Shown: positions 2,916-22,023 of the stretch, in pieces
Layout of the letters: each line of letters starts with the position of its first letter
Position numbering within the stretch: position 1 is the first letter of the stretch
IMG/VR virus record: IMGVR_UViG_3300022538_000960
Span: 1-64,000 of that record
DNA length: 64,000 bases
Direction: 5' to 3' (one strand)
Source of the DNA: a virus
Translations under genes and position numbers: made by a program
The notes under the pieces: generated by a model
Database searches by the model: none
Told to the model about the DNA's origin: nothing
Seen by the model: only the letters and a program-made list of their open reading frames with translations

Positions 2916-2924
2916 ATCCTCCTT

Positions 2925-3077: not shown

Positions 3078-3131
3078 GCCATCCTATGGCTACTCTAGTT
3101 TACACTCTTAAGAAGAGGCCATCCTATGGCC
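3078..3131 (-). repeat. Two copies of the hairpin motif GCCAT-AGG-ATGGC
   Basis: gccatcctatggc at 3078-3090 and 3118-3130, both intergenic. Confidence 0.8.
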
Positions 3132-3141
3132 AATTTGATAA

Positions 3142-4428: not shown

Positions 4429-4569
4429 ATGTCTGACAAAAAGTCCGTTCTTGGAAGGCTGTGGAATGGTATTCGTAATGTTGGGATGGTTGTAGCTATC
4501 CCCGTAAATCTCCTTTGTCACTTTGGGAAGTATGTGTTTAGTAAAGACTTTTGGAAGGATGGAATATGA
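4429..4569 (+). CDS. Small hypothetical protein (46 aa), not in ORF track
   Basis: AGGAG SD; its TGA overlaps the protease ATG (ATGA). Confidence 0.55.
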   Translation: MSDKKSVLGRLWNGIRNVGMVVAIPVNLLCHFGKYVFSKDFWKDGI

Positions 4570-5573: not shown

Positions 5574-5616
5574 CAAAAATCTTCGACTGGCGAGAGAATA
5601 AGGCCGAATAGGAGGA

Positions 5617-5904
5617 ATGATGATATTTCGTTGGGCCAAGGATCACTTCTTTACCAAGTCCCTGGAATTCGATAAGCTCTATCATTTCGTAGGTGGAGGT
5701 TGGTGGTTCGCAATATTATTTATCATAGGCACCCCCACATTATGGTGTCTTCTTGGTTCATCCTTCTTTTCCCTCCTATGGGAAATCAAGGATGGATTGA
5801 AGCATAATTTTATATCTTCTGAATCAAAAGAAGGATTCAGCTGGAAGGATCTCCTTTGTGGTATCCTGGGTGCAGTCTTATTTTTCATAATCAACCTACT
5901 ATAG
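5617..5904 (+). CDS. Membrane protein (VanZ/YfiM-like motifs)
   Basis: DKLYHF...WEIKD...FSWKDL with three hydrophobic helices. Confidence 0.55.
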   Translation: MMIFRWAKDHFFTKSLEFDKLYHFVGGGWWFAILFIIGTPTLWCLLGSSFFSLLWEIKDGLKHNFISSESKEGFSWKDLLCGILGAVLFFIINLL

Positions 5905-5916
5905 AAAGGAGGGAAA

Positions 5917-6075
5917 ATGTTCGTATGGACTGATAGGAATTGGCAACTGAGGCCAATTTCGAATTGTGCGAAGGGATGCTGAATTCTGGCCATAGGATGG
6001 CTGCATTTAAAGGGAGAAAAAATGAAAGTGACAATTTTAGATCGGTTTAAGTTTCTCATTTTTAACAAACTGTAG
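5917..6075 (+). pseudogene. Small ORF with an in-frame TGA at 5980-5982
   Basis: Strong SD AGAAAGGAGG; the frame continues past TGA to TAG 6073. Confidence 0.35.
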
Positions 6076-6095
6076 TACTCTTGGCTGGAGGAAGT

Positions 6096-6404
6096 ATGTT
6101 TGGAGAGATCTTCGTATTAACAGCTGCTCAGACATTCATCATGGCATTTGTCATAGGCACCGCTGCATTCATCATCACGAAATCCAAATTATTCGAGAAT
6201 TTTCGTGACCAAATTACCCACCCATTTTTCAAAAAACTTATAAATTGCCCTTATTGCCTCAGCTTTTGGCTGGCGGCACTGTGGATAGGACTCTATTTCT
6301 TCGAAATCTTCCTGGCACTGGCATTGTTGATATTTCTGATTGGAGGCCTAGGTGGCATCGCTGCAATCCTGATCACATGGATATGTAAGAAGGCAGATCT
6401 ATGA
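6096..6404 (+). CDS. DUF1360-like membrane protein
   Basis: LFENFR...LINCPYCLSFW motif with TM helices. Confidence 0.65.
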   Translation: MFGEIFVLTAAQTFIMAFVIGTAAFIITKSKLFENFRDQITHPFFKKLINCPYCLSFWLAALWIGLYFFEIFLALALLIFLIGGLGGIAAILITWICKKADL

Positions 6405-6414: not shown

Positions 6415-6615
6415 ATGAAAAAACTCTTCAGAGACATACTGACATCAGATGGAAAGAAGATAAGCCTAGGAAGAGTATCATTCTGCATCGCTTTCATTAT
6501 ATCTATGATAATGTATGTCCTCAATGGTGTCATTTCCGCATCCATGATCACCCTCTTGGGATTACTACTTGGGTATGGAACATTATCGAAGGTTCCAGGA
6601 ATTAAAAGGGGATAA
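6415..6615 (+). CDS. Two-TM membrane protein, holin-like
   Basis: DG.KISLGR followed by two TM helices and a basic tail. Confidence 0.5.
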   Translation: MKKLFRDILTSDGKKISLGRVSFCIAFIISMIMYVLNGVISASMITLLGLLLGYGTLSKVPGIKRG

Positions 6616-6616
6616 T

Positions 6617-7600
6617 TTGAGAGTAAACAAAAGTAAAACCTTATTTAACCTGGTTCTGTTATTTTTTCTTCTGGCAAATTCAGCCTATAGTGCAGACCAG
6701 ACAGTTCATACCGCAGCATTTTTTGACCGGGATGGACCGGGAACAACGTCTGCCAATTTTTTGAAAATCGGAATAGGGGCTAAAGCCAGGGGTATGGGCG
6801 GTGCCTTCGTGGGTTTAGCCGATGATGCTTCTGCTATCTTTTGGAATCCTGCCGGTCTGTCTCAGCTCGGCTCTCCCCAGGTCATGTTTGTACATAACCT
6901 GTGGGCACAGGATGTAAGACATGAATATCTTGGTTATGCTTTGCCCATTGATACAAAGAACACTGTGGCGGTTGCCGTTATGTTCCTTCACATGGGTGAA
7001 ATTTTGGGATATGATGAGAATGATAAGCCCACCTCATTTTTCTCGGCCTACGATGCGGCCATGCTTTTAGGATACTCCAGAAAAATCTCCTCACATCTTT
7101 CCTTAGGTTGGACAGCTAAAGGCATTTTAGAGAAGCTGGAAGATCAGAAAGCGCAGGCGGTAGCATTTGATATGGGACTTTTTTACGATTCATACATTCT
7201 CTCTTTTGGTCTCTCTTTAAGAAACTTGGGAACAAAATTGAAATTCATGGAGAAAGAGCATCCTTTGCCCACAGACTTAAAAGTTGGAATTGCCTTCAAG
7301 GCTTTGAACAATCACCTTCTTCTAAGCACAGATATAGACTTTCTCACTGATACCTCGCCTGTATTACAGCAAGGAATTGAATGTAATTTTCAAAATGTTT
7401 TGTTTATAAGAAGTGGTGTCGAGTATAAGACCCAAAATCAGAGCTTGGGAAACTCGACCAGCCCAGCTGTAGGAGGGGGCATACGAATTTCAAAGTTTCA
7501 ATTTGACTACACCTATTCTTCCGTGAAACCCTTAGGGGACCTGCACAACTTCTCGCTGATTTATAGATTTAATGATAATTTAAATAAAAATGGGAAATAA
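6617..7600 (+). CDS. PorV/PorQ (UPF0164)-family outer-membrane beta-barrel
   Basis: Signal peptide, then ANFLKIGIGAKARGMGGAFVGLADDASAIFWNPAGL, amphipathic strands and a terminal HNFSLIYRF. Confidence 0.85.
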   Translation: MRVNKSKTLFNLVLLFFLLANSAYSADQTVHTAAFFDRDGPGTTSANFLKIGIGAKARGMGGAFVGLADDASAIFWNPAGLSQLGSPQVMFVHNLWAQDVRHEYLGYALPIDTKNTVAVAVMFLHMGEILGYDENDKPTSFFSAYDAAMLLGYSRKISSHLSLGWTAKGILEKLEDQKAQAVAFDMGLFYDSYILSFGLSLRNLGTKLKFMEKEHPLPTDLKVGIAFKALNNHLLLSTDIDFLTDTSPVLQQGIECNFQNVLFIRSGVEYKTQNQSLGNSTSPAVGGGIRISKFQFDYTYSSVKPLGDLHNFSLIYRFNDNLNKNGK

Positions 7601-7734: not shown

Positions 7735-8409
7735 ATGTTGTATATAATCGGGGCGAGCGGCCACGGCAGGGTTGTGCTTGATGTCTTAAATGCCATGCGG
7801 GAATTTTTTTCTGGAGAACCATTACATCCAATGACGATGCCCATACCAGAATTGTATACCGATAAAATTTGTTTTGCCGATCAAAATTCAGAGCTGGCTG
7901 GCAGATACCTGGATGGGCACAAGATTCTATGTATGAAAACGTATGCCTTACATGATGTCAGTTTCTTTTTTGTTGCCATTGGTGATAATGGAGTCAGACA
8001 GAAAATCTATGATGAATTGAAGTCGCGGGGCTACCCCACGGGTGTTCTTACAAGCCCCTTTGCCTATGTATCTCCAGAAGCAACCATAGGAAATGGAACA
8101 TTGATCAATCATGGGGCAATTATTCAACCGGGGATCCTAATTGGAGAAAATTGTATAATCAATACTGGCGCCAAGATAGATCACGACTGCAAAATTGGAA
8201 ATCATGCGCATATTTCACCGGGAGCAACGCTGTGTGGAAGCGTCCATATAGGGAATAATACAATGGTGGGGGCGGGAACAATCATAAAACCTGGTGCATC
8301 AATTGGCAGTAATTGTTTTATTTCGATGGGTTCCAAGATTAAATGTGATATTCCTGATGGATATATTGTGAATACCAAAGGGGTGATCAAAGAAAGGAGC
8401 AAATTGTGA
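7735..8409 (+). CDS. PglD/NeuD-type amino-sugar acetyltransferase
   Basis: IIGASGHG, VAIGDN.VR, hexapeptide repeats and INTGAKIDHDC. Confidence 0.9.
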   Translation: MLYIIGASGHGRVVLDVLNAMREFFSGEPLHPMTMPIPELYTDKICFADQNSELAGRYLDGHKILCMKTYALHDVSFFFVAIGDNGVRQKIYDELKSRGYPTGVLTSPFAYVSPEATIGNGTLINHGAIIQPGILIGENCIINTGAKIDHDCKIGNHAHISPGATLCGSVHIGNNTMVGAGTIIKPGASIGSNCFISMGSKIKCDIPDGYIVNTKGVIKERSKL

Positions 8410-9383
8410 ATATTCTCGTCACTGGCTGTGCTGGATTCATAGGGAGCCATTTTTTGAAATACGTATTCAAAAATACAGATTGGAAAATTTTTGGACTTGA
8501 TTCAATAACATATGCTGGGCAATTAGAAAATATAGGTGACGAAATACTCGAAAATTACAGATTTAAATTTATTTACGATTCTATTCAAAATGTCCAAATT
8601 GTCGATAAGTTGATGTCCAAATGTGATTATTGTGTCCATTTCGCAGGAGCAACTGATGTTAATAGATCAATTGAAAATGCGGATGATTTTATTGATACCA
8701 ATGTTGGAGGAACGAAAAACATATTGGATGCGCTGAGAAAATATAATTTAAAGCGCCTTATCTATATCTCAACGAGTGAAGTATATGGCGCGGTGAAAAT
8801 CGACCCAATGACTGAATCTCATCCTTTGGATCCTAGATCTCCATATGCTGCAACAAAATGTTCAGCAGACAGACTTTGCCAATCATATATAACGACATTT
8901 GATGTCCCTATCACCATAATTAGACCATTTAATAATTATGGACCTAATCAGCATCCAGAAAAATTGATACCTGGCGTTATTACATCAATATTGCAAGGGA
9001 AGCCGGGGAGAATATATGGGAGCGGACAAGCTGAAAGGGACTGGCTTTTTGTCAAAGATAATGTACGAGGAATATTTGAAGCAATGATAACTGACGTTGC
9101 ACACCAAAAAATAATAAATTTAGCAACAAATGAGTCTCATTCTGTTAATGAAGTCGTTGATATAATAATACAAAAAATTGGCGGATCAGTTGAACATATC
9201 GATGCAAGACCAGGGGAAGTATCGGCACATCGGGGGTCATACGATCTTGCAAAAACAATGCTCGATTGGTCTCCAAAGGTGAATTTAGAATCTGGCATAG
9301 AGCAAACCATAAATTGGTATAATCAAAATCAAGATTGGTGGAAAAGTAAACGAATCCAATTTGGATGTAAATTGGTCGAATAG
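8406..9383 (+). CDS. rfbB: NDP-glucose 4,6-dehydratase (RmlB-like)
   Basis: GCAGFIG, TYAG, VNRSI, STSEVYG, SPYAATK and NNYGPNQHPEKLIP. Confidence 0.85.
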   Translation: MNILVTGCAGFIGSHFLKYVFKNTDWKIFGLDSITYAGQLENIGDEILENYRFKFIYDSIQNVQIVDKLMSKCDYCVHFAGATDVNRSIENADDFIDTNVGGTKNILDALRKYNLKRLIYISTSEVYGAVKIDPMTESHPLDPRSPYAATKCSADRLCQSYITTFDVPITIIRPFNNYGPNQHPEKLIPGVITSILQGKPGRIYGSGQAERDWLFVKDNVRGIFEAMITDVAHQKIINLATNESHSVNEVVDIIIQKIGGSVEHIDARPGEVSAHRGSYDLAKTMLDWSPKVNLESGIEQTINWYNQNQDWWKSKRIQFGCKLVE

Positions 9384-9391
9384 GTGAGAAT

Positions 9392-9952
9392 ATGATTAAA
9401 CAATGCATTATGTGTAAATTGCATAAAGATGTTTCAGAATTTTATCGAAAAGGCGAAAATCGAAAAGGTAAGATACATTATGCATCTTATTGCAAAAAAT
9501 GTGATGCTATTCGGAGGATGAATTACTACAAAAGTAATGAAAAGATTGTCAAACGGAAAGCTAAGGAATACCGAGAAAAGAATAAAGAAAAATTAACCGC
9601 ATATAGACACAAAAATTGGATACGGAAATGGTGTATCGGGACAATTAATCATCATAGAAATTGTGGCTATGTATTAAAATTTACACTTGATGATCTTTAT
9701 AATTTGGCAATGAATACAAAAAAATGTTTTTATTGTGGTTGCGATCTCAAATGGTATCCAGGAAAACTTCAACCTTATTCCCCAACTTTGGATAGAATCG
9801 ATAATGGCAAAGAATTAGAACGTAATCAAATTGAAATTATATGCAGAAAATGCAATTCAACAAAACAAGATAGGAATTTTCATGAATTTATAAGATATTG
9901 CATATCTATTTCTAATAAATTTAAAAATTCCATATTACCAATGGAGTCTTGA
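9392..9952 (+). CDS. HNH endonuclease (family A, copy 2)
   Basis: N-terminal CxxC..EFY..CxxC; SPTLDRIDN...ICRKCNSTK. Confidence 0.85.
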   Translation: MIKQCIMCKLHKDVSEFYRKGENRKGKIHYASYCKKCDAIRRMNYYKSNEKIVKRKAKEYREKNKEKLTAYRHKNWIRKWCIGTINHHRNCGYVLKFTLDDLYNLAMNTKKCFYCGCDLKWYPGKLQPYSPTLDRIDNGKELERNQIEIICRKCNSTKQDRNFHEFIRYCISISNKFKNSILPMES

Positions 9953-9953
9953 G

Positions 9954-11030
9954 ATGATTAGATACGTATATCCGGAACTTCCAGATCTTTCGGAAATATC
10001 ATTTGATTTACAAGACGCATTACAAACAGGATCAGTTACGATGTGCTCACAAGTTGGACAATTTGAAAATGAAATTGCTAAATTTTTAGATGTTCCATAT
10101 GCCCTTTGTATGTCCAATGCCACGGCATGTCTGATGCTCATGCTTCGGAACATAGATGGAGATATTCTTGTTCCGTCTTGGACTTTTCATGCCACTTTGG
10201 CTGCATGCTGGTGGAATAAGCTGAAACCAATATATGTAGATATAGATCCAAAAACGTGGACCATTGATGTAGAAGATGCTCAAAGAAAAATGACACCGAA
10301 TACCAAGGCGATTCTGGCGATCAACATATTCGGATTGCCCCCAGATGTTGACGATTTGGTGGAGTTTGCTGATGCAAATAAAATTAAACTATTTTTTGAT
10401 TCCAGCCAGGGTATTGGATCAACATATCATGGCAGGCGCATTGGCAGTTTCGGAGACGGTGAGTGTTTTAGTCTGAGTGCGACCAAAGTACTTACAACGG
10501 GGGAGGGTGGCATTTTTACTACTTCTGATAAATATATGTATGAGTCAATGAAAGCGGGAAGACATTGGGGGGATCCCGGAGTTTCTTTCAATGGAGGAAC
10601 CTATAATCCCAGGACTCCCGGCCTAAATGGTCATATGACTGAATTTCAGGCAATTTTAGGTAAATGGGGACTAAGTCATTTAGACCGTTGGATTGAGGAG
10701 AAACATAAGCTCGTGGACATATATAAAAAATATCTTGGCAACCATGTGGTATATCAAGAAATTCCTCCTAATAGAACAACCACTTATAAAGATTTTTCAA
10801 TTTTAGTGCCACTGCAAAAGCATGAAGCAGTAATGGAAAATTTACTTAGAAATCTAATTCAGTTCAAGAATTATTTCTATCCTTGTCACTGGACCGATGC
10901 TTATAAAAATGGTACCAGCCTGCCGATTACCGAAGAATTTTATTATAGATCCATTTCCCTTCCAATATATAATAGACTCCCGGAAAAGGAAATAAAGTTC
11001 ATATGCGACGTCGTTTTGGAGATGTTATAA
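9954..11030 (+). CDS. DegT/DnrJ/EryC1/StrS PLP-dependent sugar aminotransferase
   Basis: SNATACL, DSSQGIG and FSLSATKVLTTGEGG (PLP lysine). Confidence 0.92.
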   Translation: MIRYVYPELPDLSEISFDLQDALQTGSVTMCSQVGQFENEIAKFLDVPYALCMSNATACLMLMLRNIDGDILVPSWTFHATLAACWWNKLKPIYVDIDPKTWTIDVEDAQRKMTPNTKAILAINIFGLPPDVDDLVEFADANKIKLFFDSSQGIGSTYHGRRIGSFGDGECFSLSATKVLTTGEGGIFTTSDKYMYESMKAGRHWGDPGVSFNGGTYNPRTPGLNGHMTEFQAILGKWGLSHLDRWIEEKHKLVDIYKKYLGNHVVYQEIPPNRTTTYKDFSILVPLQKHEAVMENLLRNLIQFKNYFYPCHWTDAYKNGTSLPITEEFYYRSISLPIYNRLPEKEIKFICDVVLEML

Positions 11031-11055
11031 TGAAAGTTTCAATAGGAGGATACAC

Positions 11056-12114
11056 ATGAGAGTTTTGGTAATCGGATTCTATGGAATGGGTAATACAGGA
11101 GACGAAGCTATTCTGAATGGATTAGTTGTAACTATGCGCAGAATTGATCCCGATATTGGAATTGATGTGGGGACGGAATTGCCATTTATATATTTTGGTG
11201 ATTATAATGAATGGAGAGGTGTCTCGTCATTAATGAAAGACGGCATTTATTATGACGTAGGATCTAGGTCGTTAACTAATTATGCCTTTGGAGAAGGAAC
11301 GGAGCGGATTGGATTGGTCATACTTGGGGGTGGTGGGCTATCAATTGGGTATGGGTATGGCCTGGTCATGCGTGCAATGGATGCGGGAATTCCTGTAATA
11401 AATATGGGAATTGAATATAGAAATGAATGTAGAACTTTCTCTTTATTTCATGAATTTCTTAAACGGTTTTCTGATATTGCGGTCCGATCTCGAGATTCGA
11501 GTAATTTTCTAACTTCTCTGGGAATTCATCACCATCTTACTTTTTGCCCCAGTTTGCAGGTTGATCCTGTAACGTGTGATCCATTGCCTGACGATTACAT
11601 AGTAATAACTCCGAGACGCACAAATGATTCTGACGATGAAATGCAAGTGCAGATCATAGTCGATAAATTGAAAGAATTGAACAAACCGGCGATTCTGATT
11701 CCATTTAGTAAATACGATTTAGCTGGATTCCCGATAGATATGAAAATTTGCGAAGAAGTGAAGTCTCAATATCAGAATTCATCTATAATTCCGAAACTTG
11801 ATGGATATAAACCTGGGTCATATAAATTTATTATTTCCAAAGCCTCTCTGCTTATAAATTCTGGAAGATTTCATGCATCCATATTCGCGGCGGAATTTGG
11901 GGTTCCAACAATCCATAGCTGTCCTGCGGACAGTGCGGACAAAATTTACAATTTTCTCTCTGAATTTGGAATTGAAAAACGCCACTCATGGGCAGATGGA
12001 TTTGGTCCCCCAGTTGATTTTGGTAGTTTGGAAAACAAAGATATTATGAATAGATTTCGTGGACTGGAAAAAATGAATTCGGAAATTCTAAAAACATATA
12101 TTCCCAGTTCTTAA
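11056..12114 (+). CDS. Polysaccharide pyruvyl transferase (CsaB/WcaK family)
   Basis: GFYGMGNTGDEAIL, GGGGL, VRSRDS and RFHASIFA. Confidence 0.85.
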   Translation: MRVLVIGFYGMGNTGDEAILNGLVVTMRRIDPDIGIDVGTELPFIYFGDYNEWRGVSSLMKDGIYYDVGSRSLTNYAFGEGTERIGLVILGGGGLSIGYGYGLVMRAMDAGIPVINMGIEYRNECRTFSLFHEFLKRFSDIAVRSRDSSNFLTSLGIHHHLTFCPSLQVDPVTCDPLPDDYIVITPRRTNDSDDEMQVQIIVDKLKELNKPAILIPFSKYDLAGFPIDMKICEEVKSQYQNSSIIPKLDGYKPGSYKFIISKASLLINSGRFHASIFAAEFGVPTIHSCPADSADKIYNFLSEFGIEKRHSWADGFGPPVDFGSLENKDIMNRFRGLEKMNSEILKTYIPSS

Positions 12115-12154
12115 AATTTTTTTGGAATAATTTTGACATTAACGCGGAAGGATA

Positions 12155-13075
12155 ATGAAAATTTCAATTATTTGTACTTTGTTTAATCGCTTAAGTTATT
12201 TGAAAATGCTGATGTGGAATATATTTAATTACCAAGATTTCAATAAATCACAATTAGAATTTATTGTTGTTGATGATGGGGGATCTCAAGATATTTTATC
12301 GTATTTGAAGACCGACTATGCAGGAAAAAATGTTCAGTACATCAGGACAAACAGAAAAGCGAGAGCTGGATATGGTAATCTGCCAGCTGGGCGAGCAATT
12401 CCCACAAATTTAGGTGTATCTTTTTCAAAAGGCGAAATAATTCTTATTTGTGACGCAGAAGATTTTATGTTAGACCCGAATCATTTGTCATTTTTTTGTG
12501 AAAATTTAGAAGACCCAAAACAAATTGCTGCGGCCAATGCAATGGAAACATTGACAATTGGCGAATTATCATATGTTAGAGAAAATTATAAAAATGTTTC
12601 ACTTATTAAAAAATATATAGCCGAACGCCGCAATGTGGATCTTTCTAGAGAGCATTATTTTGCTGGAAGACATTCTGGCTATTGGGCGCAACCCCGCGAA
12701 GGATTTGTTTCTATTGGAGGATTTGATGAAAGATTAATTGGTCTTTGCGGTGATGATTCTGAATTTAACTATAGGCTTAGAAAATTAAATTATACATATG
12801 TGCCTTCTCCTTTATTTATAGTACATAATTATCATGGGGAAAATGTCGGTGGACCTATGCGTCATTGGGGAGATGAGTTTAATAATGTAAATCAATATAC
12901 CCCCGAACTTAAGGCAAAGAATAGTAAATTTACAGAGAAACATAATGAGATGGGAAGAATAATTAATGCCGAACAAGACTCTGGAAAAAGACAACTTAAA
13001 TTACGGATGGGGGTAAAATTTTATGATGATGATATTCACATCGATTTATCAAGATACAAAAAGGAGAAACAATGA
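12155..13075 (+). CDS. GT2 glycosyltransferase (A)
   Basis: IVVDDGG, CDAED, GGFDE..G..GDD.E. Confidence 0.85.
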   Translation: MKISIICTLFNRLSYLKMLMWNIFNYQDFNKSQLEFIVVDDGGSQDILSYLKTDYAGKNVQYIRTNRKARAGYGNLPAGRAIPTNLGVSFSKGEIILICDAEDFMLDPNHLSFFCENLEDPKQIAAANAMETLTIGELSYVRENYKNVSLIKKYIAERRNVDLSREHYFAGRHSGYWAQPREGFVSIGGFDERLIGLCGDDSEFNYRLRKLNYTYVPSPLFIVHNYHGENVGGPMRHWGDEFNNVNQYTPELKAKNSKFTEKHNEMGRIINAEQDSGKRQLKLRMGVKFYDDDIHIDLSRYKKEKQ

Positions 13076-14040
13076 AAGTATCTATAACGATCCCAATTTG
13101 GAATCGGGCAGCATATCTTCAGTATTCGTTATATTTGTATGCGAAACAAACTATCAAGGATTTTGAAATTATAGTGATCGATGATAATTCGGATGATAAT
13201 CCATATGATGTGTGCAAAATTTTCAAGGATCATATGAATATCAGGTTTTTCAGATGCGGAAGAAAGGAAGACCAGTCCCTTCCTCAAGGTTGTGGTCCAT
13301 TGTTAAATTTTGCAGCAAAAAATGTAGCGAAAGGTGAGATAACAATCTATGCCGATCCAGAAGTTATGCCATTTCCCGATTTTGTGGAACAACACTATTT
13401 ATCTCATCAGCCCGGACATATTATTAAGGAACCAGACTTTATAGCGCCGGGGGTTCCTGGGAAAATTAGAAATCCAATAGCAATCGAAATGGAAACATAC
13501 TACAATATCAAAGGATTGACATTAAAAACATGGATTGAGCATAGAAACCTATTTGGAACTTTAGAAGGTTGGATGAAAGAGGGAAGAATAAAAGATATTG
13601 TCAGTATGTGGAATTGGATGTGGTCCATTATAATGAAATTGCCAAATGATCATACCGGGGAACATAACAAAGATTCCAGTTATAGAAATGGGGATCAGTC
13701 TTTTTGGGGGTTCCAAGGATCACAAGCAGGCTGGTCATACAGAACAGATAAATATGTTGAACTGAGAGGTTGGAATGAAGACTGTTCTAAGCTTGGCTAT
13801 TGGATGGCTGAAGATTGTGAATTTGGAGCAAGGATGAGGCGCGCAGGTATTCAGTCCATTGAAAATGCTAATATTCGCGCAATTCATTTATGTCATCCAA
13901 AAGCGACTATTGGTTCCGATGAAATGATAGATAACTGTGTCCGAGATCCATATGAACGAAATGAAGATTGTATTATTGGCAATGTCGGGCACAAGTGGGG
14001 TGATCCAGAGATTTTAAAAATTGAAGAGATTAAGTTGTAA
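13072..14040 (+). CDS. GT2 glycosyltransferase (B)
   Basis: IVIDDNSDD, ADPE, GWNE...AEDCE. Confidence 0.85.
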   Translation: MKVSITIPIWNRAAYLQYSLYLYAKQTIKDFEIIVIDDNSDDNPYDVCKIFKDHMNIRFFRCGRKEDQSLPQGCGPLLNFAAKNVAKGEITIYADPEVMPFPDFVEQHYLSHQPGHIIKEPDFIAPGVPGKIRNPIAIEMETYYNIKGLTLKTWIEHRNLFGTLEGWMKEGRIKDIVSMWNWMWSIIMKLPNDHTGEHNKDSSYRNGDQSFWGFQGSQAGWSYRTDKYVELRGWNEDCSKLGYWMAEDCEFGARMRRAGIQSIENANIRAIHLCHPKATIGSDEMIDNCVRDPYERNEDCIIGNVGHKWGDPEILKIEEIKL

Positions 14041-14063
14041 CCAAATTTAAATGGAGATCATGG

Positions 14064-14645
14064 GTGAGATTCGAAGAATCACAAAAAAGAGTAATGGCAA
14101 TGGGAGGACAGGATAATAGTTTAGATCTCGGTTATAGATATTTATATGATGTCGTTATGGATAGCCCAGATGGGGCTGTCGTCGAAATAGGCGTTTTGGG
14201 TGGAGTTGCCGCTGCCACTTTATGTGCTGCTGCAGAAGAAAAAAATGTTAAATATTATGGAATTGATCCGTGGGACATGTTAACTTCAAATGATCATTTG
14301 AGACATTTGGTTGGAGATCCGGTAAAAAATGAAGAACTGGCTAAAAAAACCATGTCTGAGTTAAAATTTACAAACTACGAATTCATTAAGGGATTTTCCT
14401 ATGATGTTGCAAAAAATTTTAACGAATCGATTGGATGTCTATTTATTGATGGATGCCATTGTTACGAATGTGTAAAAAAGGATTTTCTCCTATGGCAGTC
14501 CAAAATAGCTTTGAATGGCACAATCGTATTTCATGATGCAGGGTGGGATGGTGTTGGAAAAGTAATAGAAGGCATAGTAAAAAACGACCATAATTTTGTA
14601 GAAATACAAAACGTTCAAATTGAAACATATAAAAAAATTTCATAG
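14064..14645 (+). CDS. Class I SAM methyltransferase (Methyltransf_24-like)
   Basis: VEIGVLGG, GIDPW, FIDGCH.YE.V..D and IVFHD. Confidence 0.85.
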   Translation: MRFEESQKRVMAMGGQDNSLDLGYRYLYDVVMDSPDGAVVEIGVLGGVAAATLCAAAEEKNVKYYGIDPWDMLTSNDHLRHLVGDPVKNEELAKKTMSELKFTNYEFIKGFSYDVAKNFNESIGCLFIDGCHCYECVKKDFLLWQSKIALNGTIVFHDAGWDGVGKVIEGIVKNDHNFVEIQNVQIETYKKIS

Positions 14646-14660
14646 ATTGCAAGTGGTGTT

Positions 14661-15419
14661 ATGGTTCCAAAAATGTCTGTTGGAATTGATTTTTTCCATG
14701 ATAGGAAACCGTTTATAAAAAGTCTAATACATTCATTAAACTCGCAAACGTTTAGGGATTTCGAAGTAATATTTATGGATGATGGACCCGAATGTGGTGC
14801 ACTTGATGAATTAAAAAACCTAAAACATTTTTTTCCTATAAGATATTATTATGTGAATAGGAGACCAGAAGCGGAAACTTTGGAAAATCCATCATTTCTT
14901 GCATGTGGGAATCTTACAAATTTTGTTGTAGATAATATGAATTCGGATAAATATATAAGATGTGATCCAGAAGTGATACTACCACCAAATATATTGTATA
15001 ATTACTATATAGCTCTATATGTTTCGCTGTTACATAATATAAAGAATTTTTTTGTTTGCGGCAGATATTGTGCAGAAAAATCATCCGAAGAATTTTTGCT
15101 CCATAATTGGAATAATATTCCAGCTATGATGAAACATTGTGAATCAAATTGTCCAACAGATTGTGGATATTTTTCATGCATGGCAATATCTAAATCCGAT
15201 TTCCAAGATATTGGTGGATTCACCACAAATGAAAAAGGATGGGGAGGCATAGACCAGGAGTTTACAGCAAGAGCGACAAAATTAAAATATAGGCATCATA
15301 GTTTACCTATGTTAACTATTCATCAATGTCATAAAAGAAATAGCGACTATAAAATGAGTAGTGGTATCGATCATCCGATAACGAACCCAAAATTAACAAT
15401 TTTAGAATCAAATTTATAA
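14661..15419 (+). CDS. GT2 glycosyltransferase (C)
   Basis: IFMDDG, CDPE, IGGF...GWGGID.E. Confidence 0.8.
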   Translation: MVPKMSVGIDFFHDRKPFIKSLIHSLNSQTFRDFEVIFMDDGPECGALDELKNLKHFFPIRYYYVNRRPEAETLENPSFLACGNLTNFVVDNMNSDKYIRCDPEVILPPNILYNYYIALYVSLLHNIKNFFVCGRYCAEKSSEEFLLHNWNNIPAMMKHCESNCPTDCGYFSCMAISKSDFQDIGGFTTNEKGWGGIDQEFTARATKLKYRHHSLPMLTIHQCHKRNSDYKMSSGIDHPITNPKLTILESNL

Positions 15420-15427
15420 AATTTTTT

Positions 15428-16447
15428 ATGAACCCAATAATATCTGTGATATTGGAAACTGCGCGATATGGCGGTCTTGATTGGCAATTAAAACTGCTTG
15501 CAAACCAGTCATTCAAGGATTTTGAATTAATTCTTATTGATGGATGTTATAATGAACGAAAGGAATTTGTTTTAGTTCTTGCGGAAGAATTAAATATAGA
15601 TTTGATATATCTAGAAGAACAATTTCCATTTAAAACTTCGCATGTGCGTCCTTTGAATGTAAATACCTGCATGAAATTCGCAACAGGTAAATATTTTGTT
15701 TTTCTTGATGATTATCATCTTTTTCCAAATAATTTTTTGGAAGAGCATTATAAAATTTGTGAACACGGGTGTGGCGGGATAGTTCAGTGGCTTGGTATTA
15801 AATATGAAGATCAAATAGATTATTCGGAAAAGTCTCCAATAATTATTGATAAGGATCCAAGAATAGATTATTTTTTAGATCACATTAATGATTTTGTAAA
15901 GTTTGACAATTGGTATTTGGGCGTTCCTTGGGATTGGTGGTGGCCAAATTCTGTAAGCATCCCGGCTAAATATATACGAACAGTAAATGGTTTCAATGAG
16001 ATATATTGTGGGGGAAGTGGGGGAGAGGACAATGATGTTGCATATAGGATGTTTTCTACCGGGGCGAAATTTGCTTTCAATCCAATTTTAATTGCTTATC
16101 ATGTACAACATAGGAAGGATGATATTCCCATGCGAGAACCCCCTCATAGAATTGGATTAAATTCTGTACCAGATTGTAGTTTTGCTCATGATCGACGGCC
16201 ATTTACAAAGAATGAATATTGGCCGCATGGTGACCCTAATTTAATAGAAAATGATCAATTGTTTACATGGTTTGAATCCGGGTACAAACTTTTTCAATGC
16301 AAACATTGCGGCGAATTTGGATGTGTGGATGGGCACCAAATGTTGCAAAATACTAAAATTCGATATGCTCAAAACAATCAGATGCCACCAGATGAAATTC
16401 ATTTTTCTGACGGAACAACCCATAAATGTATAAACATAAGGAAATAA
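15428..16447 (+). CDS. GT2 glycosyltransferase (D) with C-terminal CxxC
   Basis: LIDG, FLDD, NGFNE..GGSGGED and CKHCG. Confidence 0.82.
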   Translation: MNPIISVILETARYGGLDWQLKLLANQSFKDFELILIDGCYNERKEFVLVLAEELNIDLIYLEEQFPFKTSHVRPLNVNTCMKFATGKYFVFLDDYHLFPNNFLEEHYKICEHGCGGIVQWLGIKYEDQIDYSEKSPIIIDKDPRIDYFLDHINDFVKFDNWYLGVPWDWWWPNSVSIPAKYIRTVNGFNEIYCGGSGGEDNDVAYRMFSTGAKFAFNPILIAYHVQHRKDDIPMREPPHRIGLNSVPDCSFAHDRRPFTKNEYWPHGDPNLIENDQLFTWFESGYKLFQCKHCGEFGCVDGHQMLQNTKIRYAQNNQMPPDEIHFSDGTTHKCINIRK

Positions 16448-16448
16448 A

Positions 16449-17015
16449 ATGAAGTATGAAATAATGAAAGAGCTATGGATTAAGCATCACCCTGATTGGC
16501 TTGGCGATATTCCGCAAGTAGAGTTTTTATATAATGCTGCGATGGATGCGCCCACAGATTCCAAATTTTTCGTAGAGATTGGAACCCAATATGGAGAATC
16601 GGCACTGATGTTAACTGCCGCCGCCGAAGATAAAGGACAAATTTTATATTGCATTGATCCATTTGATCTTCATTCTCAAGGCCAATCTCAGACTGAATTA
16701 ACGTTCCGTAAAAACATGGAAACAGTTGGTCTTACTAATTGGATTCTTATCAGAAAACTTGCGGAAGACGCTGCACCCACCTTTGAATTTTCAATTGCTT
16801 TGTTATATATAGATGGAAATCATAACTACGAGTACGTACTAAAAGATTGGGAATTATGGGCGCCGAAATTAATTCCTGGAGGTGTATTGATCTTTCATGA
16901 TCGTGATTGCGACGGCGTATCTAAAGTATTGAATCTAGTTAGACAAGATCAATTATTTTGTAATGAGAAAATTGGGCCCGATCCTTTGATTTCATTTGAA
17001 AGGAAAAAGAATTGA
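16449..17015 (+). CDS. Class I SAM methyltransferase (paralog of 14064)
   Basis: VEIGTQYGES, IDPF, YIDGNHNYE and GGVLIFHD. Confidence 0.85.
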   Translation: MKYEIMKELWIKHHPDWLGDIPQVEFLYNAAMDAPTDSKFFVEIGTQYGESALMLTAAAEDKGQILYCIDPFDLHSQGQSQTELTFRKNMETVGLTNWILIRKLAEDAAPTFEFSIALLYIDGNHNYEYVLKDWELWAPKLIPGGVLIFHDRDCDGVSKVLNLVRQDQLFCNEKIGPDPLISFERKKN

Positions 17016-17016
17016 A

Positions 17017-17916
17017 ATGAAGATTTCAGTGATTACGGTAGTTGCTAATAGGTTGGCATACCTAAAGATGCTAATGTGGAATTTATTTAATTATCAAGAT
17101 TTAGCTCATTTGGAATTCGAACATGTTATCATTGACGATGGTAGCATAGAGGATATTTTATCTTATTTGAAAACTAATTATTCCGGAAAAAATGTTCAGT
17201 ATGTTCGGACTAATAGAAAAGAACGTCGTGGTATGCCAAATGTCCCCGCCGGCCGCTCGATTCCTACCAATTTGGGTGTCAAATTTGCCCGTGGTGACAT
17301 TATATTAATTTGTGATGCGGAAGACTGCATGCTTGAACCTAGTCATTTATCCGAATTTTGTAAAAGAATTGGGCCAAATCAAATAATGGCAGCGATACCA
17401 ATTGAAACACAAAACGAAAATGACTTAATGTATTATGAAAAAAATTATAATGATCCATTGGGGTTTAAAAAATATTTGGAAGGATGCTATCCGGATTCAA
17501 TGCACCCGTCAAACATACCTCCGCATGATCGATTATATTCTATGATCGATGGAAATCTTCATTATTTGTACAGATGTTCAGGATATTGGGCGCAACGCAA
17601 GGAGGATTATATTTCTATTGGAGGATTTGATGAAGAAGCCTGGGGGATGGCCGGAGACGACTATGAATTATCTTATCGTCTGGACAAAGCAGGTTTTACA
17701 TATATTGCATCTCCATTGTACATAATACATATCTTTCATGGTCGAGGGATGGAAAGACATTCTTGCTCTGAAATCAACGAGGAATTGATCAAAGAGAGTA
17801 TGAAAATTCGCGATGGATTTTTTGAAAGAATGGAGAATAAAACGCTACCGATATCTATAAAATTTGATCCAAAGTTCCATTATGATGACGTTTACGTTGA
17901 TATATCGAAAGTGTAA
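17017..17916 (+). CDS. GT2 glycosyltransferase (A', paralog of 12155)
   Basis: Shares YLKMLMWN.FNYQD, GKNVQY.RTNRK, IPTNLGV and ILICDAED with 12155. Confidence 0.85.
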   Translation: MKISVITVVANRLAYLKMLMWNLFNYQDLAHLEFEHVIIDDGSIEDILSYLKTNYSGKNVQYVRTNRKERRGMPNVPAGRSIPTNLGVKFARGDIILICDAEDCMLEPSHLSEFCKRIGPNQIMAAIPIETQNENDLMYYEKNYNDPLGFKKYLEGCYPDSMHPSNIPPHDRLYSMIDGNLHYLYRCSGYWAQRKEDYISIGGFDEEAWGMAGDDYELSYRLDKAGFTYIASPLYIIHIFHGRGMERHSCSEINEELIKESMKIRDGFFERMENKTLPISIKFDPKFHYDDVYVDISKV

Positions 17917-17957
17917 ATTTGATACAGTGAAAGAAGTAAAACTATAAGGAGCTTAGT

Positions 17958-19001
17958 ATGAAAATATCTGTTTGTCTTTCGACACGAAGATATGGTGGGT
18001 TGCTTCAGCAATTAGAATTTTTTAGATATCAAACATTTCCGAAACAAGATTTTGAAATTGTTATTATTGATGGTCTCTATTGGCAACGAACGCAAAGTGT
18101 TATAGAAAAAGCAAAAGAATGGGGCCTAAACATAGTTTATGATGCGCCAAGAAAATTGAATTGGAAAGTTTCTATTGATCATTCGTCTACAAGAAATGAT
18201 GCGTTGGCATTGGCAAATGGGGAACTCATTGTGTTTTTTGATGATTATCAAATTCCTGTTGAACACTTGCTGGAGGAACATTGGAAGATATATCAACAAG
18301 GATATTGTTGCCAAGGTCGCCAGCATTATTTCGAGGCAACCGATTTCGATAATGTGAAAGATATTAAATTAAAAAAATCCGGGAATCCTGATTTGGGAAG
18401 TGTTGAAAGAGAGATGCCCCCAACAACTTTTTATACTCACAATTGTTCAGCCCCGCTGGCCGAATTAATAAAAGTTAATGGCTTTGATGAACGATTTAAT
18501 AGCGCAAACGGCGGGGAAGACTATGAATGTGGTTCTCGTTTGAGCCGGATAGGAAATAAAATGAAGTATAATCCAAAGGCATTATGTTATCATATGAGCC
18601 ATGAAGCTATTAGGATTTATCCTGCAGATCCGACAATTTGTTCTTTTATATATGATGCAAAGACAAAAGAAACTTTCCTCGAATTATATCCTACAATCAG
18701 TGAGAATGAAATTGAATGGATAGATTGGGTCAATATTGAAAAATATAATGGGAAAAATCATGATAGAAGCCCCATTTATTGCCATCCAAATTTTACCGGC
18801 ACATTCAAGACTGAAACGCTCGAAACTTGGGACGAAAATGGATTAATTTTTTGCAAATGTAAGGTTTGTGGATGGATGGGCGTAATTGATAGTATACCCT
18901 TGTTTCATTGGAATACCCAACATAATATTGTTGAGGCGCCAAAGAAATATTTTGATTTAATAAAAGCAAGGGAAAATATTCACGTGTCGCCGGAGATATA
19001 A
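17958..19001 (+). CDS. GT2 glycosyltransferase (D', paralog of 15428)
   Basis: RYGGL, FFDDY, NGFDE..GGED, HDR.P and CKVCG. Confidence 0.82.
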   Translation: MKISVCLSTRRYGGLLQQLEFFRYQTFPKQDFEIVIIDGLYWQRTQSVIEKAKEWGLNIVYDAPRKLNWKVSIDHSSTRNDALALANGELIVFFDDYQIPVEHLLEEHWKIYQQGYCCQGRQHYFEATDFDNVKDIKLKKSGNPDLGSVEREMPPTTFYTHNCSAPLAELIKVNGFDERFNSANGGEDYECGSRLSRIGNKMKYNPKALCYHMSHEAIRIYPADPTICSFIYDAKTKETFLELYPTISENEIEWIDWVNIEKYNGKNHDRSPIYCHPNFTGTFKTETLETWDENGLIFCKCKVCGWMGVIDSIPLFHWNTQHNIVEAPKKYFDLIKARENIHVSPEI

Positions 19002-19034
19002 TTTTTCCAATGAAACTATAAATTTCAAAGATAT

Positions 19035-19574
19035 ATGCCTTCGAGTTATTTTACATTTGAAGTTATATCCCTTACAGAACAGTTATCTCATAAATCAATC
19101 CTAGATGTTGGTCCAGGATTCGGAAAATATGGGATGTTACTGAGGGAATACTTGGATATTTGGTTTGGTAGATATCACAAAAAAAGTTGGGAGTGCCGTA
19201 TTGATTGCATTGAAGCGTTTAAAGATTACATCACCCCGGTCCATGAATACATCTATAATCAAATTTATATTGGTAAGGCCGAAGAAATGATAAATCAATT
19301 GCCTTCATATGATTTAATATTAATTTTAGATGTCATTGAACATTTGGAAAAAGATATAGGAATTAATTTTATAATAGATTGCAAGAAGAAATCATCTGCC
19401 ATTATAATTATGACACCAAAAGGATTTACAGAACAAGCGCCATATATGAGTAATCAATTTGAAATTCATAGATCAGGTTGGATAGAAAAAGATTTCGAAA
19501 CACTAGGGTTTAATTATAAAATTATCAAACCATGTCATGATAAAATTTTAGCACATTGGATTAAGAAAGATTAA
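19035..19574 (+). CDS. Class I SAM methyltransferase
   Basis: ILDVGPGFGKYG, DVIEHL and H.SGW...DF. Confidence 0.82.
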   Translation: MPSSYFTFEVISLTEQLSHKSILDVGPGFGKYGMLLREYLDIWFGRYHKKSWECRIDCIEAFKDYITPVHEYIYNQIYIGKAEEMINQLPSYDLILILDVIEHLEKDIGINFIIDCKKKSSAIIIMTPKGFTEQAPYMSNQFEIHRSGWIEKDFETLGFNYKIIKPCHDKILAHWIKKD

Positions 19575-19581
19575 ATTAGAA

Positions 19582-20424
19582 TTGGATAATTTAAGTATAA
19601 CATATATAATAAATACATGTAATCGGGGATATTTTTTAAAACAGAATATACAAGATCAAATTCTTTCGAAACATTTTGATATAGCCGGAATCAATTTTGA
19701 TATAATTATCGTTGACGATGGAAGTATTGACGGCACGTTTGGTAAAATTAAACCGTTGTGTGTTGGAAAATTGGGAATCCCAATCAAATATATATATCTA
19801 AAAAGACGAATACGCAATTGTTATTATTCTGATTCAGTGCCCAAAAATACTGCTGTATCATATAGTAATTCAAAATTTATTTACGTGGCAGATTCCGATT
19901 GTTATATATGCAATTCTGATATTTTTCATCATTTATTTGAACTTCATGAAAATGAGTATCTGTGTCCAAATATGTTTCGAATTAATTATAAAAAAGAATT
20001 CTATGATTTTTGTTCGAAAAATTGGATGCACCCATTAAAATGCCTTGAACATTTTAAGAAATTCGGGCACATATCTACGGAGTGCTATTATCCTACGATA
20101 TACGATGAAAAAGCGACCCAAGTTATTCCATTTAAATCTGGGCTCTTTGGGATGCATCGAGAAACATTTCATAATATTGGTGGGATTCCGCCGATTCGAA
20201 CACCCTTTGGAACAGATGAAGTGATGCAGGGATTAATTAAAGAACATAATATAATATTAAATGAAGACGCAAATTCAAAATTATTCGTCGTCCATTTTCC
20301 GATCAAATATGCCAAAGATTTTTTCTCGATATGTTCTCCTTATATAGACGAACATTATGAACAAATAAATGGAATTACTATTCTCAAAAAGGAATTTTTG
20401 GATGTATATGAATTAACGTTATAA
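19582..20424 (+). CDS. GT2 glycosyltransferase (E)
   Basis: IIIVDDGSIDGT, DSD and IGG. Confidence 0.8.
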   Translation: MDNLSITYIINTCNRGYFLKQNIQDQILSKHFDIAGINFDIIIVDDGSIDGTFGKIKPLCVGKLGIPIKYIYLKRRIRNCYYSDSVPKNTAVSYSNSKFIYVADSDCYICNSDIFHHLFELHENEYLCPNMFRINYKKEFYDFCSKNWMHPLKCLEHFKKFGHISTECYYPTIYDEKATQVIPFKSGLFGMHRETFHNIGGIPPIRTPFGTDEVMQGLIKEHNIILNEDANSKLFVVHFPIKYAKDFFSICSPYIDEHYEQINGITILKKEFLDVYELTL

Positions 20425-20975: not shown

Positions 20976-21467
20976 ATGAATGCGCATGTTTGTCCATTAT
21001 GCCTGTCAGACGCGACCGATACTCTGTGTAAGCTATGTAGAACCAAATATTTATTGGATAAAAAATATAAAATATTTAGGAAAAAACTAAATACTACTAG
21101 GACGAAATATAAGACTCAACATTTGCTCTACGAGATTTGTAAATTATTATATGGCACGGCATTCGAAGAAGTTGCATTTCCAAAATGCTACAGTGAGAAG
21201 GGGGCGCTTCTTCGTTTTGATATCTATATTCCAAGTAAAAAACTTCTTATAGAATATCAAGGACAGGCACACTTTGAATACAATAAATTTTTTCATAAAA
21301 CTAAGAAAGAGTTTAGGAAAGCCCAATTACGGGATCTTAGAAAGAAAGTGTTTTGTTCAAAATATGATTATGCATTTTTGGAATTTTTTCCTACTGATAA
21401 AATTTTTGCTCATGAAGTAAAACAAAAAATTGAAGCTATAATAAAAAATGAAAAAAAAGTGGTCTGA
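20976..21467 (+). CDS. Vsr/DUF559-like endonuclease with N-terminal Cys cluster
   Basis: LRFDIYIP...LIEYQG.AH...RD..K..FC. Confidence 0.75.
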   Translation: MNAHVCPLCLSDATDTLCKLCRTKYLLDKKYKIFRKKLNTTRTKYKTQHLLYEICKLLYGTAFEEVAFPKCYSEKGALLRFDIYIPSKKLLIEYQGQAHFEYNKFFHKTKKEFRKAQLRDLRKKVFCSKYDYAFLEFFPTDKIFAHEVKQKIEAIIKNEKKVV

Positions 21468-22023
21468 AAAACACAATCTTGATTCATGCAAAAATTGTGG
21501 AACTAAAGATCAATCGCATCACGCGAAAGGATTATGCAGAAAATGCTATATGCAACAAGATAATATTAAAAAATATTATCGATCATATATGTATGAATAT
21601 AATCGCTCATCTGAAAAAAGTAGAAAATATCAGCGGGAATATAAAAAATTACGCCGGTCTGAAAAATATAAAAGAAACCAAGAACAATATCAAAAAGATT
21701 GGGCAAAATCTCCAATTGGTCGAAGCATCCATCGATTTCATGATCGGAAAAGAAGAGCGAATAAAAAATTAGTAGATTTTTGGACAAGATCAATGGAAGA
21801 TTGTTGGGGATGGATGCTAGATGCAACCGAGGGATATTGCATAAAATGTGGCGATTATTATGGAATAGATAATCTTACTATGGACCACATAGTTCCATTG
21901 ATTCTCGTAGATAAGTTGGGCACCCAAAAAGCAATTGAAATTGGTGCAATTCATCATATTGATAATGTTCAAGTATTATGCAAAAGTTGCAATAGTAAAA
22001 AACATGATGCAAATAATATTTAA
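21448..22023 (+). CDS. HNH endonuclease (family B, copy 1)
   Basis: CKNCG..H.AKGLCRKCY; CIKCG..LTMDHIVP..NVQVLCKSCNSKK. Confidence 0.88.
   Translation: MKKKWSEKHNLDSCKNCGTKDQSHHAKGLCRKCYMQQDNIKKYYRSYMYEYNRSSEKSRKYQREYKKLRRSEKYKRNQEQYQKDWAKSPIGRSIHRFHDRKRRANKKLVDFWTRSMEDCWGWMLDATEGYCIKCGDYYGIDNLTMDHIVPLILVDKLGTQKAIEIGAIHHIDNVQVLCKSCNSKKHDANNI

Follow-up and report, generated by a model that had tools for sequence, protein, structure and literature searches.

A cluster of fourteen apparently soluble glycan enzymes in a large tailed phage, and its possible use in glycosylating phage proteins

The DNA under study is the first 64 kb (64,000 nt; hereafter the window) of a 98,001-bp linear virus contig, IMG/VR record IMGVR_UViG_3300022538_000960. 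Positions 7735-20424 of the window, 12.7 kb in all, hold 15 open reading frames (ORFs), all on the plus strand and separated by gaps of at most 41 nt. Fourteen of the 15 encode enzymes, namely an acetyltransferase, a dehydratase, an aminotransferase, a pyruvyltransferase, seven family 2 glycosyltransferases (GT2s) and three S-adenosylmethionine (SAM) dependent methyltransferases. We read this glycan cluster as a phage-owned operon for glycan assembly in the cytoplasm and judge the chances to be about even that its glycan goes onto phage proteins, the likeliest target. In its fullest form, the proposal is that a tailed phage with 14 enzymes of its own and no membrane machinery builds a pyruvylated and methylated heteroglycan on its own particle. 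The glycan would take at least seven sugar-adding steps, would contain an N-acetylated 4-amino-4,6-dideoxyhexose, would form a bacterial-virus counterpart of the Mimivirus fibril coat, and would diversify between sister phages through gain and loss of transferases and methyltransferases. This composite picture is held more tentatively, at somewhat below even likelihood. Enzyme identities were taken from Pfam, NCBIfam, PHROGs and the ESM Atlas. An earlier reading of the same DNA, made from the letters alone (the sequence-only reading), had listed these enzymes and counted 14; Pfam, NCBIfam and the ESM Atlas bore out both inventory and count, with the correction that there are 15 ORFs, the extra one being a homing endonuclease. 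The named enzyme classes were all confirmed, most of them far above chance and the third methyltransferase on weaker evidence.

Related records show that the cluster belongs to the phage. IMGVR_UViG_3300031553_000354 (L002, also listed as G001; 72.8 kb, from a different metagenome) shares 89% capsid identity with this phage, and IMGVR_UViG_3300029812_000326 (G002; 108,870 bp) shares 85%. In L002 the acetyltransferase, dehydratase, aminotransferase and pyruvyltransferase genes are syntenic with those of the cluster at 63-72% identity (71% for the acetyltransferase and 72% for the pyruvyltransferase), followed in order by five GT2s and two methyltransferases at 32-69%. Behind these stand RecU, HNH and AAA ATPase genes (72-84%) and further orthologs, the whole of this group spanning 56-87%. 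A profile of the glycosyltransferases at 12155 and 16996 found four representatives at E<=1e-30 among 1.84 billion proteins, and the subfamily has no match in GenBank phages. The aminotransferase has six lineage-restricted relatives at 57-85% identity, after which identity drops to 37% or less; DegT homologs (E<=1e-5) occur in 82 of 50,697 deposited phage records, mostly cyanomyoviruses, and all are below 30% identity among the matches listed. When the pyruvyltransferase was compared with 185,579 species genomes, the best of 296 cellular relatives shared 20-27% identity over long alignments, and this enzyme too has no match in GenBank phages. Such lineage restriction of the glycosyltransferase subfamily, the aminotransferase and the pyruvyltransferase argues against recent capture from a host and against a chimera. 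The sequence-only reading had raised the prospect of a misassembled host locus; a second assembly, from another metagenome, holds the same cluster in the same place, and this synteny together with the three lineage-restricted enzyme groups rules out a misassembled or recently captured host locus. The GC content of the cluster is 35.3% versus 39.6% for the rest, with the genes lacking L002 orthologs among the lowest. When IMG/VR was queried separately with the terminase, with the pyruvyltransferase and with the glycosyltransferase relatives P0004 and P0005, no loci came back, and a metagenome scan returned no contig beyond one already known.

The second relative, G002, is classed as a 'provirus'. 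Its first genes are a homing endonuclease and RecU, so that the record opens at the very point where the cluster would be expected to end (G002 1-3300). A lineage aminotransferase (P0157, 72% identity) and a glycosyltransferase (P0002) are each recorded on a 130,853-bp contig (108,870 + 21,983), presumably one and the same. Another version of the cluster probably lies on a contig of 21,467 bp. The glycan cluster was therefore probably trimmed from G002 as 'host' by the virus-calling pipeline. The position of this boundary suggests that such pipelines may cut similar clusters as host DNA, which may hide how common they are.

The cluster also appears to be wholly soluble. In a Kyte-Doolittle scan none of the 14 enzymes showed a transmembrane segment; their one hydrophobic window, in the methyltransferase at 14064, is taken from its position to be the SAM-binding strand. 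No ORF of at least 60 aa in the 98 kb has more than two transmembrane-like segments, and neither PF02397 (Bac_transf phosphoglycosyltransferase) nor PF01943 (Polysacc_synt flippase) is matched in this record or in the two related ones. The statement of the sequence-only reading that the cluster lacks a flippase, an initiating transferase and a transmembrane enzyme thus held. Within the approximately 38% of the genome covered, the gene content does not look like a Wzx/Wzy- or ABC-dependent surface polysaccharide locus. Nor does it resemble GtrABC-type seroconversion, as the 98 kb contain no polytopic membrane ORF and the GT2s have no more than borderline GtrB-like matches in PHROGs (E 4e-4 to 6e-3). 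A sugar-1-phosphate nucleotidyltransferase was likewise missing, with no PF00483 match in this record or L002, and the starting nucleoside diphosphate (NDP) hexose would accordingly have to be supplied by the host or by genes outside the sequenced part of the genome. Soluble GT2s are also normal in the synthesis of lipid-linked O-antigen and cell-wall polymers, so a set lacking transmembrane segments does not by itself prove a protein-directed pathway.

The first three enzymes form a sugar-nucleotide module. The acetyltransferase (7735-8409, 224 aa) is a left-handed beta-helix sugar N-acetyltransferase of the NeuD/PglD/VioB family (Hexapep 1e-22, PglD_N 1e-12) and scores 186.7 bits against TIGR03570 NeuD/PglB/VioB, over the cut-off of 160.8. 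Its nearest structures are the Neisseria pilin glycosylation protein 4m98 (1e-28), the perosamine N-acetyltransferase 4ea7 (1e-27), PglD and VioB; it is closest to Neisseria PglB, PerB, PglD and VioB, which acetylate C4 amino groups, and far from QdtC. The dehydratase (8406-9383, 325 aa) is RmlB-like (GDP_Man_Dehyd 4e-67) and matches TIGR01181 dTDP-glucose 4,6-dehydratase at 3.4e-89 and 299 bits, under the 365-bit equivalog cut-off. Its best match in the Protein Data Bank (PDB) is the dTDP-glucose 4,6-dehydratase 6bi4; it is closer to this bacterial RmlB (9e-69) than to 6vlo (1e-40), which we take to be Mimivirus R141. The GxxGxxG and YxxxK motifs are present, and the enzyme reads STSEVYG where RmlB enzymes have STDEVYG, the catalytic Asp being replaced by Ser in alignments. 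The same change is seen in the L002 ortholog (L002 3132-4145). A Thr-Ser-Glu triad is that of GDP-mannose 4,6-dehydratase and of the UDP-glucuronate decarboxylases (UXS, ArnA). The similarity is 235 bits to RmlB-like enzymes versus 121 bits to UXS1, and because of this overall RmlB-like similarity the name dehydratase was kept despite the Ser variant; both the substrate and even the type of reaction are predicted with uncertainty.

The aminotransferase (9954-11030, 358 aa) is a pyridoxal phosphate (PLP) dependent sugar aminotransferase of the DegT/DnrJ/EryC1 family that covers the full PF01041 profile (4e-79). Its SLSATK motif is conserved in L002, and the lysine of this motif is assumed to be the one that forms the PLP Schiff base. 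Of the few cellular homologs with names given at source (37% identity or less), most go by perosamine synthetase or 4-amino-4,6-dideoxyhexose transaminase, and the PDB neighbours comprise the C3 enzyme QdtB as well as the C4 enzymes DesI and PerA. The enzyme is probably C4-specific rather than C3-specific. No 3,4-ketoisomerase was found among the cluster genes. From the C4-type acetyltransferase, the aminotransferase labels and the lack of a ketoisomerase, the parsimonious product is NDP-4-acetamido-4,6-dideoxyhexose, for which the viosamine, Fuc4NAc and perosamine (manno) configurations are not distinguished. This is the product that the sequence-only reading had predicted; to that prediction the perosamine type has to be added as a possibility and also the Asp to Ser change, which had gone unremarked.

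Between the dehydratase and the aminotransferase lies the one ORF of the cluster that is not an enzyme of the pathway, an endonuclease VII/HNH-type homing endonuclease (9392-9952; phrog_1035 endonuclease VII, 3.9e-21). Its GC content of 28.9% is the minimum of the cluster. It is absent from the corresponding position in L002, and a related gene stands just before RecU in G002; it is best regarded as a selfish insert. Its identity as a homing endonuclease rules out that it supplies an absent step of the pathway, for instance that of a ketoisomerase.

The remaining genes attach and decorate sugars, to judge from their families. The pyruvyltransferase (11056-12114, 352 aa) is a polysaccharide pyruvyltransferase by PF04230 (PS_pyruv_trans 7e-16; 59 bits, cut-off 25) and is distantly CsaB-like; with 77 bits against TIGR03609 CsaB, under the cut-off of 213, it classifies as a PF04230 member and not as a CsaB ortholog. 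The PF00535 (Glycos_transf_2) cut-off is passed by seven ORFs, and there are no other GT2 genes in the 98 kb. Glycosyltransferase A (12155-13075, 306 aa; PF10111 and PF00535 over cut-off) has no counterpart at that position in L002. Glycosyltransferase B (13072-14040, 322 aa; PF00535 4e-10) has an ortholog there at 52% identity. Glycosyltransferase C (14661-15419, 252 aa; PF02709 7.5e-9 and PF00535 27.2 bits, cut-off 23.3) is without an L002 ortholog, and glycosyltransferase D (15428-16447, 339 aa; PF00535 26.7 bits and PF02709) has one at 59%. Glycosyltransferase A' (PF00535, PF10111, PF02709) occupies 17017-17916 and has 299 aa when counted from the ATG at 17017, although its ORF opens at 16996; this start matches the relatives, which begin MKIS. 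The L002 ortholog of A' is broken into the overlapping frames 8966-9712 and 9507-9893, a split that reflects a frameshift or an assembly error. Glycosyltransferase D' (17958-19001, 347 aa; PF00535 26.5 bits) is 69% identical to its ortholog, and glycosyltransferase E (19582-20424, 280 aa; PF00535 1e-9 over 163 of 168 profile positions) has none in L002.

Two of the methyltransferases, at 14064-14645 (193 aa; 3.4e-20) and 16449-17015 (188 aa; 2.9e-22), belong to Methyltransf_24 (PF13578). The third (19035-19574, 179 aa) is a class I SAM methyltransferase that Pfam matches weakly (E 0.01-0.03), that carries the motif I sequence LDVGPGFG and that has no L002 ortholog; its ESM Atlas model (predicted template-modelling score, pTM, 0.90) matches class I SAM methyltransferase clusters at a template-modelling (TM) score of at least 0.9. 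Paralogs are present within the cluster, as A and A' are 45% identical, D and D' 28%, and the two Methyltransf_24 enzymes 37%. Relative to L002, four genes are extra (glycosyltransferases A, C and E and the third methyltransferase) and one L002 methyltransferase is missing. This comparison indicates that the sugar-nucleotide half is stable while the transferase and methyltransferase half gains and loses genes, from which different glycans are predicted in sister phages.

Glycosyltransferase A' was additionally modelled. The AlphaFold model, built on a 30-sequence alignment, has a GT-A fold (predicted local distance difference test, pLDDT, 89.6). Its nearest solved folds, at TM scores of ~0.5-0.58, are E. 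coli K4 chondroitin polymerase (K4CP), Listeria RmlT, animal polypeptide GalNAc-transferases, TarS/TarP and heparosan synthase. Since these neighbours act on polysaccharide, teichoic-acid or polypeptide acceptors, the fold is silent on the acceptor of A', and the fold search with this model did not separate a protein from a polysaccharide acceptor. When language-model features are compared, A' falls closest to Atlas clusters of the GT2/Glyco_transf_7C families, and several of these clusters are mostly viral.

Taken as a pathway, the enzymes would act as follows. The RmlB-like dehydratase would convert a host-supplied NDP-hexose to NDP-4-keto-6-deoxyhexose, the DegT enzyme would aminate it at C4, and the PglD/PerB/VioB-type enzyme would N-acetylate it to NDP-4-acetamido-4,6-dideoxyhexose. 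The seven GT-A glycosyltransferases would then add the acetamido sugar and host-made sugars singly to an acceptor, and the three methyltransferases and the pyruvyltransferase would decorate the sugar chain. The most likely acceptors would be phage proteins, probably those exposed on the virion, which would receive their glycans in the cytoplasm ahead of assembly or while it proceeds.

Virus-encoded autonomous glycosylation is already known as a kind, and the phage cluster would be a variant of it. Mimivirus carries a 12-gene fibril glycosylation cluster, R132-L143 (PMC10117803; Notaro et al. 2021, PMC8456856), in which a dehydratase, an aminotransferase and an N-acetyltransferase together make Vio4NAc (PMC10117803). 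The claim of the sequence-only reading that Mimivirus uses the same enzyme classes stands up to this comparison: both clusters have a 4,6-dehydratase, a PLP aminotransferase, an N-acetyltransferase, methyltransferase, a pyruvyltransferase and several GT2s (Table 3, PMC10117803). In both, the enzymes are all soluble and no host export machinery is involved. There are also differences. The present virus is a tailed phage of a bacterium whereas Mimivirus is a giant virus of amoebae; the Mimivirus cluster contains the acceptor gene R135 whereas the only non-enzyme gene of the phage cluster is the homing endonuclease; and the phage acetyltransferase is a separate PglD/PerB-type protein whereas Mimivirus L142 is fused to a glycosyltransferase. 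The phage also has three methyltransferases and seven single-domain glycosyltransferases. The likeness is one of enzyme classes and is analogy only, not ancestry.

Bacteria offer a second comparison. The VioA/VioB, PerA/PerB and PglC-E/PglD pathways share with the phage cluster the logic of a dehydratase, a C4 aminotransferase and a left-handed beta-helix N-acetyltransferase; in contrast to them, the phage dehydratase has Thr-Ser-Glu in place of Thr-Asp-Glu, and no nucleotidyltransferase is found in the 98 kb. The Pseudomonas syringae flagellin 'Vio island', as summarized in PMC10117803, follows the same logic, coupled to methylation and to soluble transferases for cytoplasmic glycosylation of a protein. 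Among phages, glycans are reported on the capsid and tail tube of mycobacteriophages (Freeman et al. 2023, Cell Host Microbe, as cited in PMC12619734). As in the present proposal, actinobacteriophage virion glycosylation uses cytoplasmic glycosyltransferases encoded by a tailed phage, there with glycans on capsid and tail-tube subunits (as outlined in PMC12619734). These sources describe a few transferases (two in Maravista, PMC11256854) and mention no dedicated amino-sugar pathway or pyruvyltransferase, whereas 14 enzymes are present here; no Ser/Thr-rich C-terminal tails were found on the capsid protein or the other structural proteins of this phage.

Another parallel is found in the cultured 160-kb myovirus Flavobacterium phage vB_FspM_immuto (MW353176.1), where genes 89-101 comprise ~13 adjacent glycan genes. 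Its host presumably falls in the same wider group, FCB, as the host of the present phage. The two clusters are alike in having glycosyltransferases, DegT aminotransferases, a PglB-like acetyltransferase, an NDP-sugar epimerase/dehydratase and a methyltransferase; they differ in that the shared enzymes are only 20-29% identical, that no pyruvyltransferase is annotated in immuto, and that immuto has GT4/RfaG-type transferases. Clusters of this sort therefore exist in cultured phage. We found no functional study of the immuto cluster, and the main text of the paper on immuto DNA (10.1101/2023.04.13.536721) contains neither 'glycosyl' nor 'sugar'. A search of the literature on phage and jumbo-phage glycosyltransferase clusters found no description of such a kit.

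Downstream of the cluster, the same strand encodes the large terminase, the portal, a prohead protease, the major capsid protein and the tail sheath; the terminase follows after ~7 kb, and then come endolysin, head and tail genes. Candidate virion proteins in this region are the capsid protein (36642-38003), the protein upstream of it (35310-36626), Big_5 Ig-like proteins (38537-41191) and the sheath (42445-45162). The terminase is nearest to those of the large myoviruses Moorella MTATph1 and Bacillus 0305phi8-36 and their relatives (25-32% identity), and together with the downstream virion genes this kinship indicates a large tailed phage. CheckV estimates the 98,001-bp record to be 38% complete, which implies a genome of roughly 250 kb. 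Directly upstream of the cluster, on the plus strand, stands a gene for a PorV/PorQ-family outer-membrane beta-barrel protein (6569-7600; NF033709, 1.9e-59). An Ignavibacteria metagenome-assembled genome (MAG) has a homolog with 87% identity, which stands in bacterial surroundings between a SpoIIE/FHA/GAF phosphatase and citrate synthase; the phage gene looks like a recent transfer from host to phage. For the ribonucleotide reductase (RNR) large subunit (56266-58524, plus strand), a homolog with 86% identity lies on a 97-kb contig from a second Ignavibacteria MAG, and the MAG regions flanking that homolog are unrelated to the phage. This contig was considered as a phage relative without the cluster and rejected: no capsid or pyruvyltransferase homolog turned up in the MAG, and its sole AAA-ATPase match is distant (30%) and on a different contig, so the contig is read as host DNA. 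The PorV-like and RNR genes are both taken to be recent acquisitions from the host, and their 86-87% identity to genes of Ignavibacteria MAGs makes an Ignavibacteria bacterium, a diderm, the probable host.

A promoter-like motif, TTG-N15-TGA(G/A)CTATAAC, has seven copies in the 98 kb, every one of them intergenic and on the plus strand (estimated chance expectation ~0.4). The seven copies, which match GA[GA]CTATAAC exactly, are at 4070, 4114, 20956, 32133 and 47258 of the window and at 64586 and 78562 of the genome. Two of them (4070 and 4114) head the rightward unit that contains the cluster, and the motif also precedes the portal gene and four other genes. All copies stand just ahead of plus-strand genes (portal, HNH, tail-region genes and the head of the cluster-containing unit), of which the portal and others look late. 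One copy stands at the homologous site in G002, and L002 has TGAGATAAATAA there. Scans for sigma-70 promoters and terminators across 4-23 kb found no more sites than in shuffles. The order of the rightward unit is the genes at 4551-6404, then the PorV-like gene, then the glycan cluster; the genes at 4551-6404 (plus strand) encode a trypsin-like peptidase-domain protein (weak Pfam matches) and two small membrane proteins of two helices each, of which one is DUF1360-like.

Glycosylation of the virion or of other phage proteins is, in our analysis, the likeliest use of the cluster, at about even odds. In its favor stand the all-soluble set, the long residence of the cluster in the phage lineage beside the virion module, the shared promoter-like motif, and the precedents of Mimivirus and the mycobacteriophages. 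A change of glycan between relatives, with five versus seven transferases, would be expected of an exposed surface in an arms race. The sequence-only reading had proposed a cytoplasmic pathway that glycosylates virion proteins; its cytoplasmic half agrees with the soluble, phage-owned set, while for its virion half no acceptor signature was found. The capsid and other structural proteins have no Ser/Thr-rich tails and show no excess of [S/T]-G-S (16 observed, 10 expected), and the cluster contains no acceptor gene comparable to Mimivirus R135. These absences weigh against a virion target, as do several further points. The dehydratase has Ser at the RmlB catalytic Asp position. The fold neighbours of glycosyltransferase A' include polysaccharide and teichoic-acid enzymes besides the polypeptide GalNAc-transferases, and soluble GT2 enzymes and CsaB-type pyruvyltransferases commonly work on lipid-linked intermediates. 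The rightward unit with the cluster opens with two small membrane proteins and a host-derived outer-membrane protein. Export or initiation genes could lie elsewhere, given that the record covers only ~38% of the genome, and the shared motif is the sole pointer to a temporal class of cluster expression.

Remodelling of the host envelope is an unlikely but substantial alternative. The soluble glycosyltransferases would here act at the inner face of the membrane on host undecaprenyl-linked intermediates or on intermediates of lipopolysaccharide or other cell-surface glycans, and a host initiating enzyme, flippase and ligase would finish the product. The changed surface might, for example, exclude superinfecting phages or keep progeny from sticking to debris. 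It is established knowledge that GT2s of 250-350 aa without transmembrane segments are usual in O-antigen clusters and that CsaB-type pyruvyltransferases use lipid-linked precursors, and the folds nearest to glycosyltransferase A' include K4CP, RmlT and TarS/TarP, which are polysaccharide and teichoic-acid enzymes. The cluster also stands directly behind the PorV/PorQ-family protein and the two small membrane proteins in one rightward unit. Outer-membrane protein genes occur in 18% of huge phages according to a 2026 preprint (10.64898/2026.10.24.761521), which counts glycosyltransferases neighbouring such genes as envelope-associated. However, the PorV-like gene is not beside the cluster in L002, so this pairing is not conserved. 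There is no polytopic membrane protein in the 98 kb, and no phosphoglycosyltransferase or Wzx there or in the two related records. Known phage seroconversion uses one to three genes with membrane parts (GtrA, GtrC) and not 14 soluble enzymes; the cluster genes are confined to their lineage and stand at a great distance from any cellular cluster; and a large phage that is probably lytic would have little time to rebuild a surface.

A different soluble target, whether non-structural phage proteins, host proteins, or a free or secreted oligosaccharide or glycoconjugate, is improbable. Any cytoplasmic acceptor would fit an all-soluble set, and the virion proteins carry no acceptor signature; yet no phage precedent is known for it, and a transferase number that varies between relatives fits an exposed surface better than an intracellular target. 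Hypermodification of DNA, in which a sugar chain on a modified base would block restriction of the phage DNA, is very improbable. Phage glycosyltransferases that hypermodify DNA with varied glycans do exist (Pyle et al. 2024, as cited in PMC12619734), and RecU and nuclease genes lie near the cluster. However, a search of three related records (98, 73 and 109 kb; 36-53% complete) found no thymidylate-synthase-family gene (PF00303), TET/JBP routes not being part of that search. Seven transferases with pyruvylation and methylation also go far beyond any DNA glycan known to us, and the nucleosides of immuto DNA, despite the analogous cluster (20-29% identity), show only fdPreQ1 replacing deoxyguanosine (10.1101/2023.04.13.536721).

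That viruses can make glycans is established in giant viruses and in some mycobacteriophages that have just a few transferases. If glycosylation of the phage's own proteins is correct, the 12.7-kb, 14-enzyme kit in a phage of an environmental diderm would show that tailed phages, too, can make elaborate glycans of their own, with a bearing on phage-host recognition, on the survival of phages in the environment and on how immune systems see phages. The cluster further offers candidate enzymes in the Ser-variant RmlB-like dehydratase, the pyruvyltransferase with its high divergence and a GT2 subfamily so far confined to this lineage of phages.

Two other features of the record were observed. Three ORFs of ~2,000 aa each (50197-56256; 58528-64581, which runs past the window end; and 64802-71083 of the genome) flank the RNR gene, and they match no Pfam family save for a weak 3'-5' exonuclease-like match in the second. 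Genes of the homing-endonuclease type (endonuclease VII-like or HNH) number at least five (9392-9952, 20976-21467, 21448-22023, 29537-30082 and 39795-40430) and are spread over the glycan, lysis, packaging and head regions.

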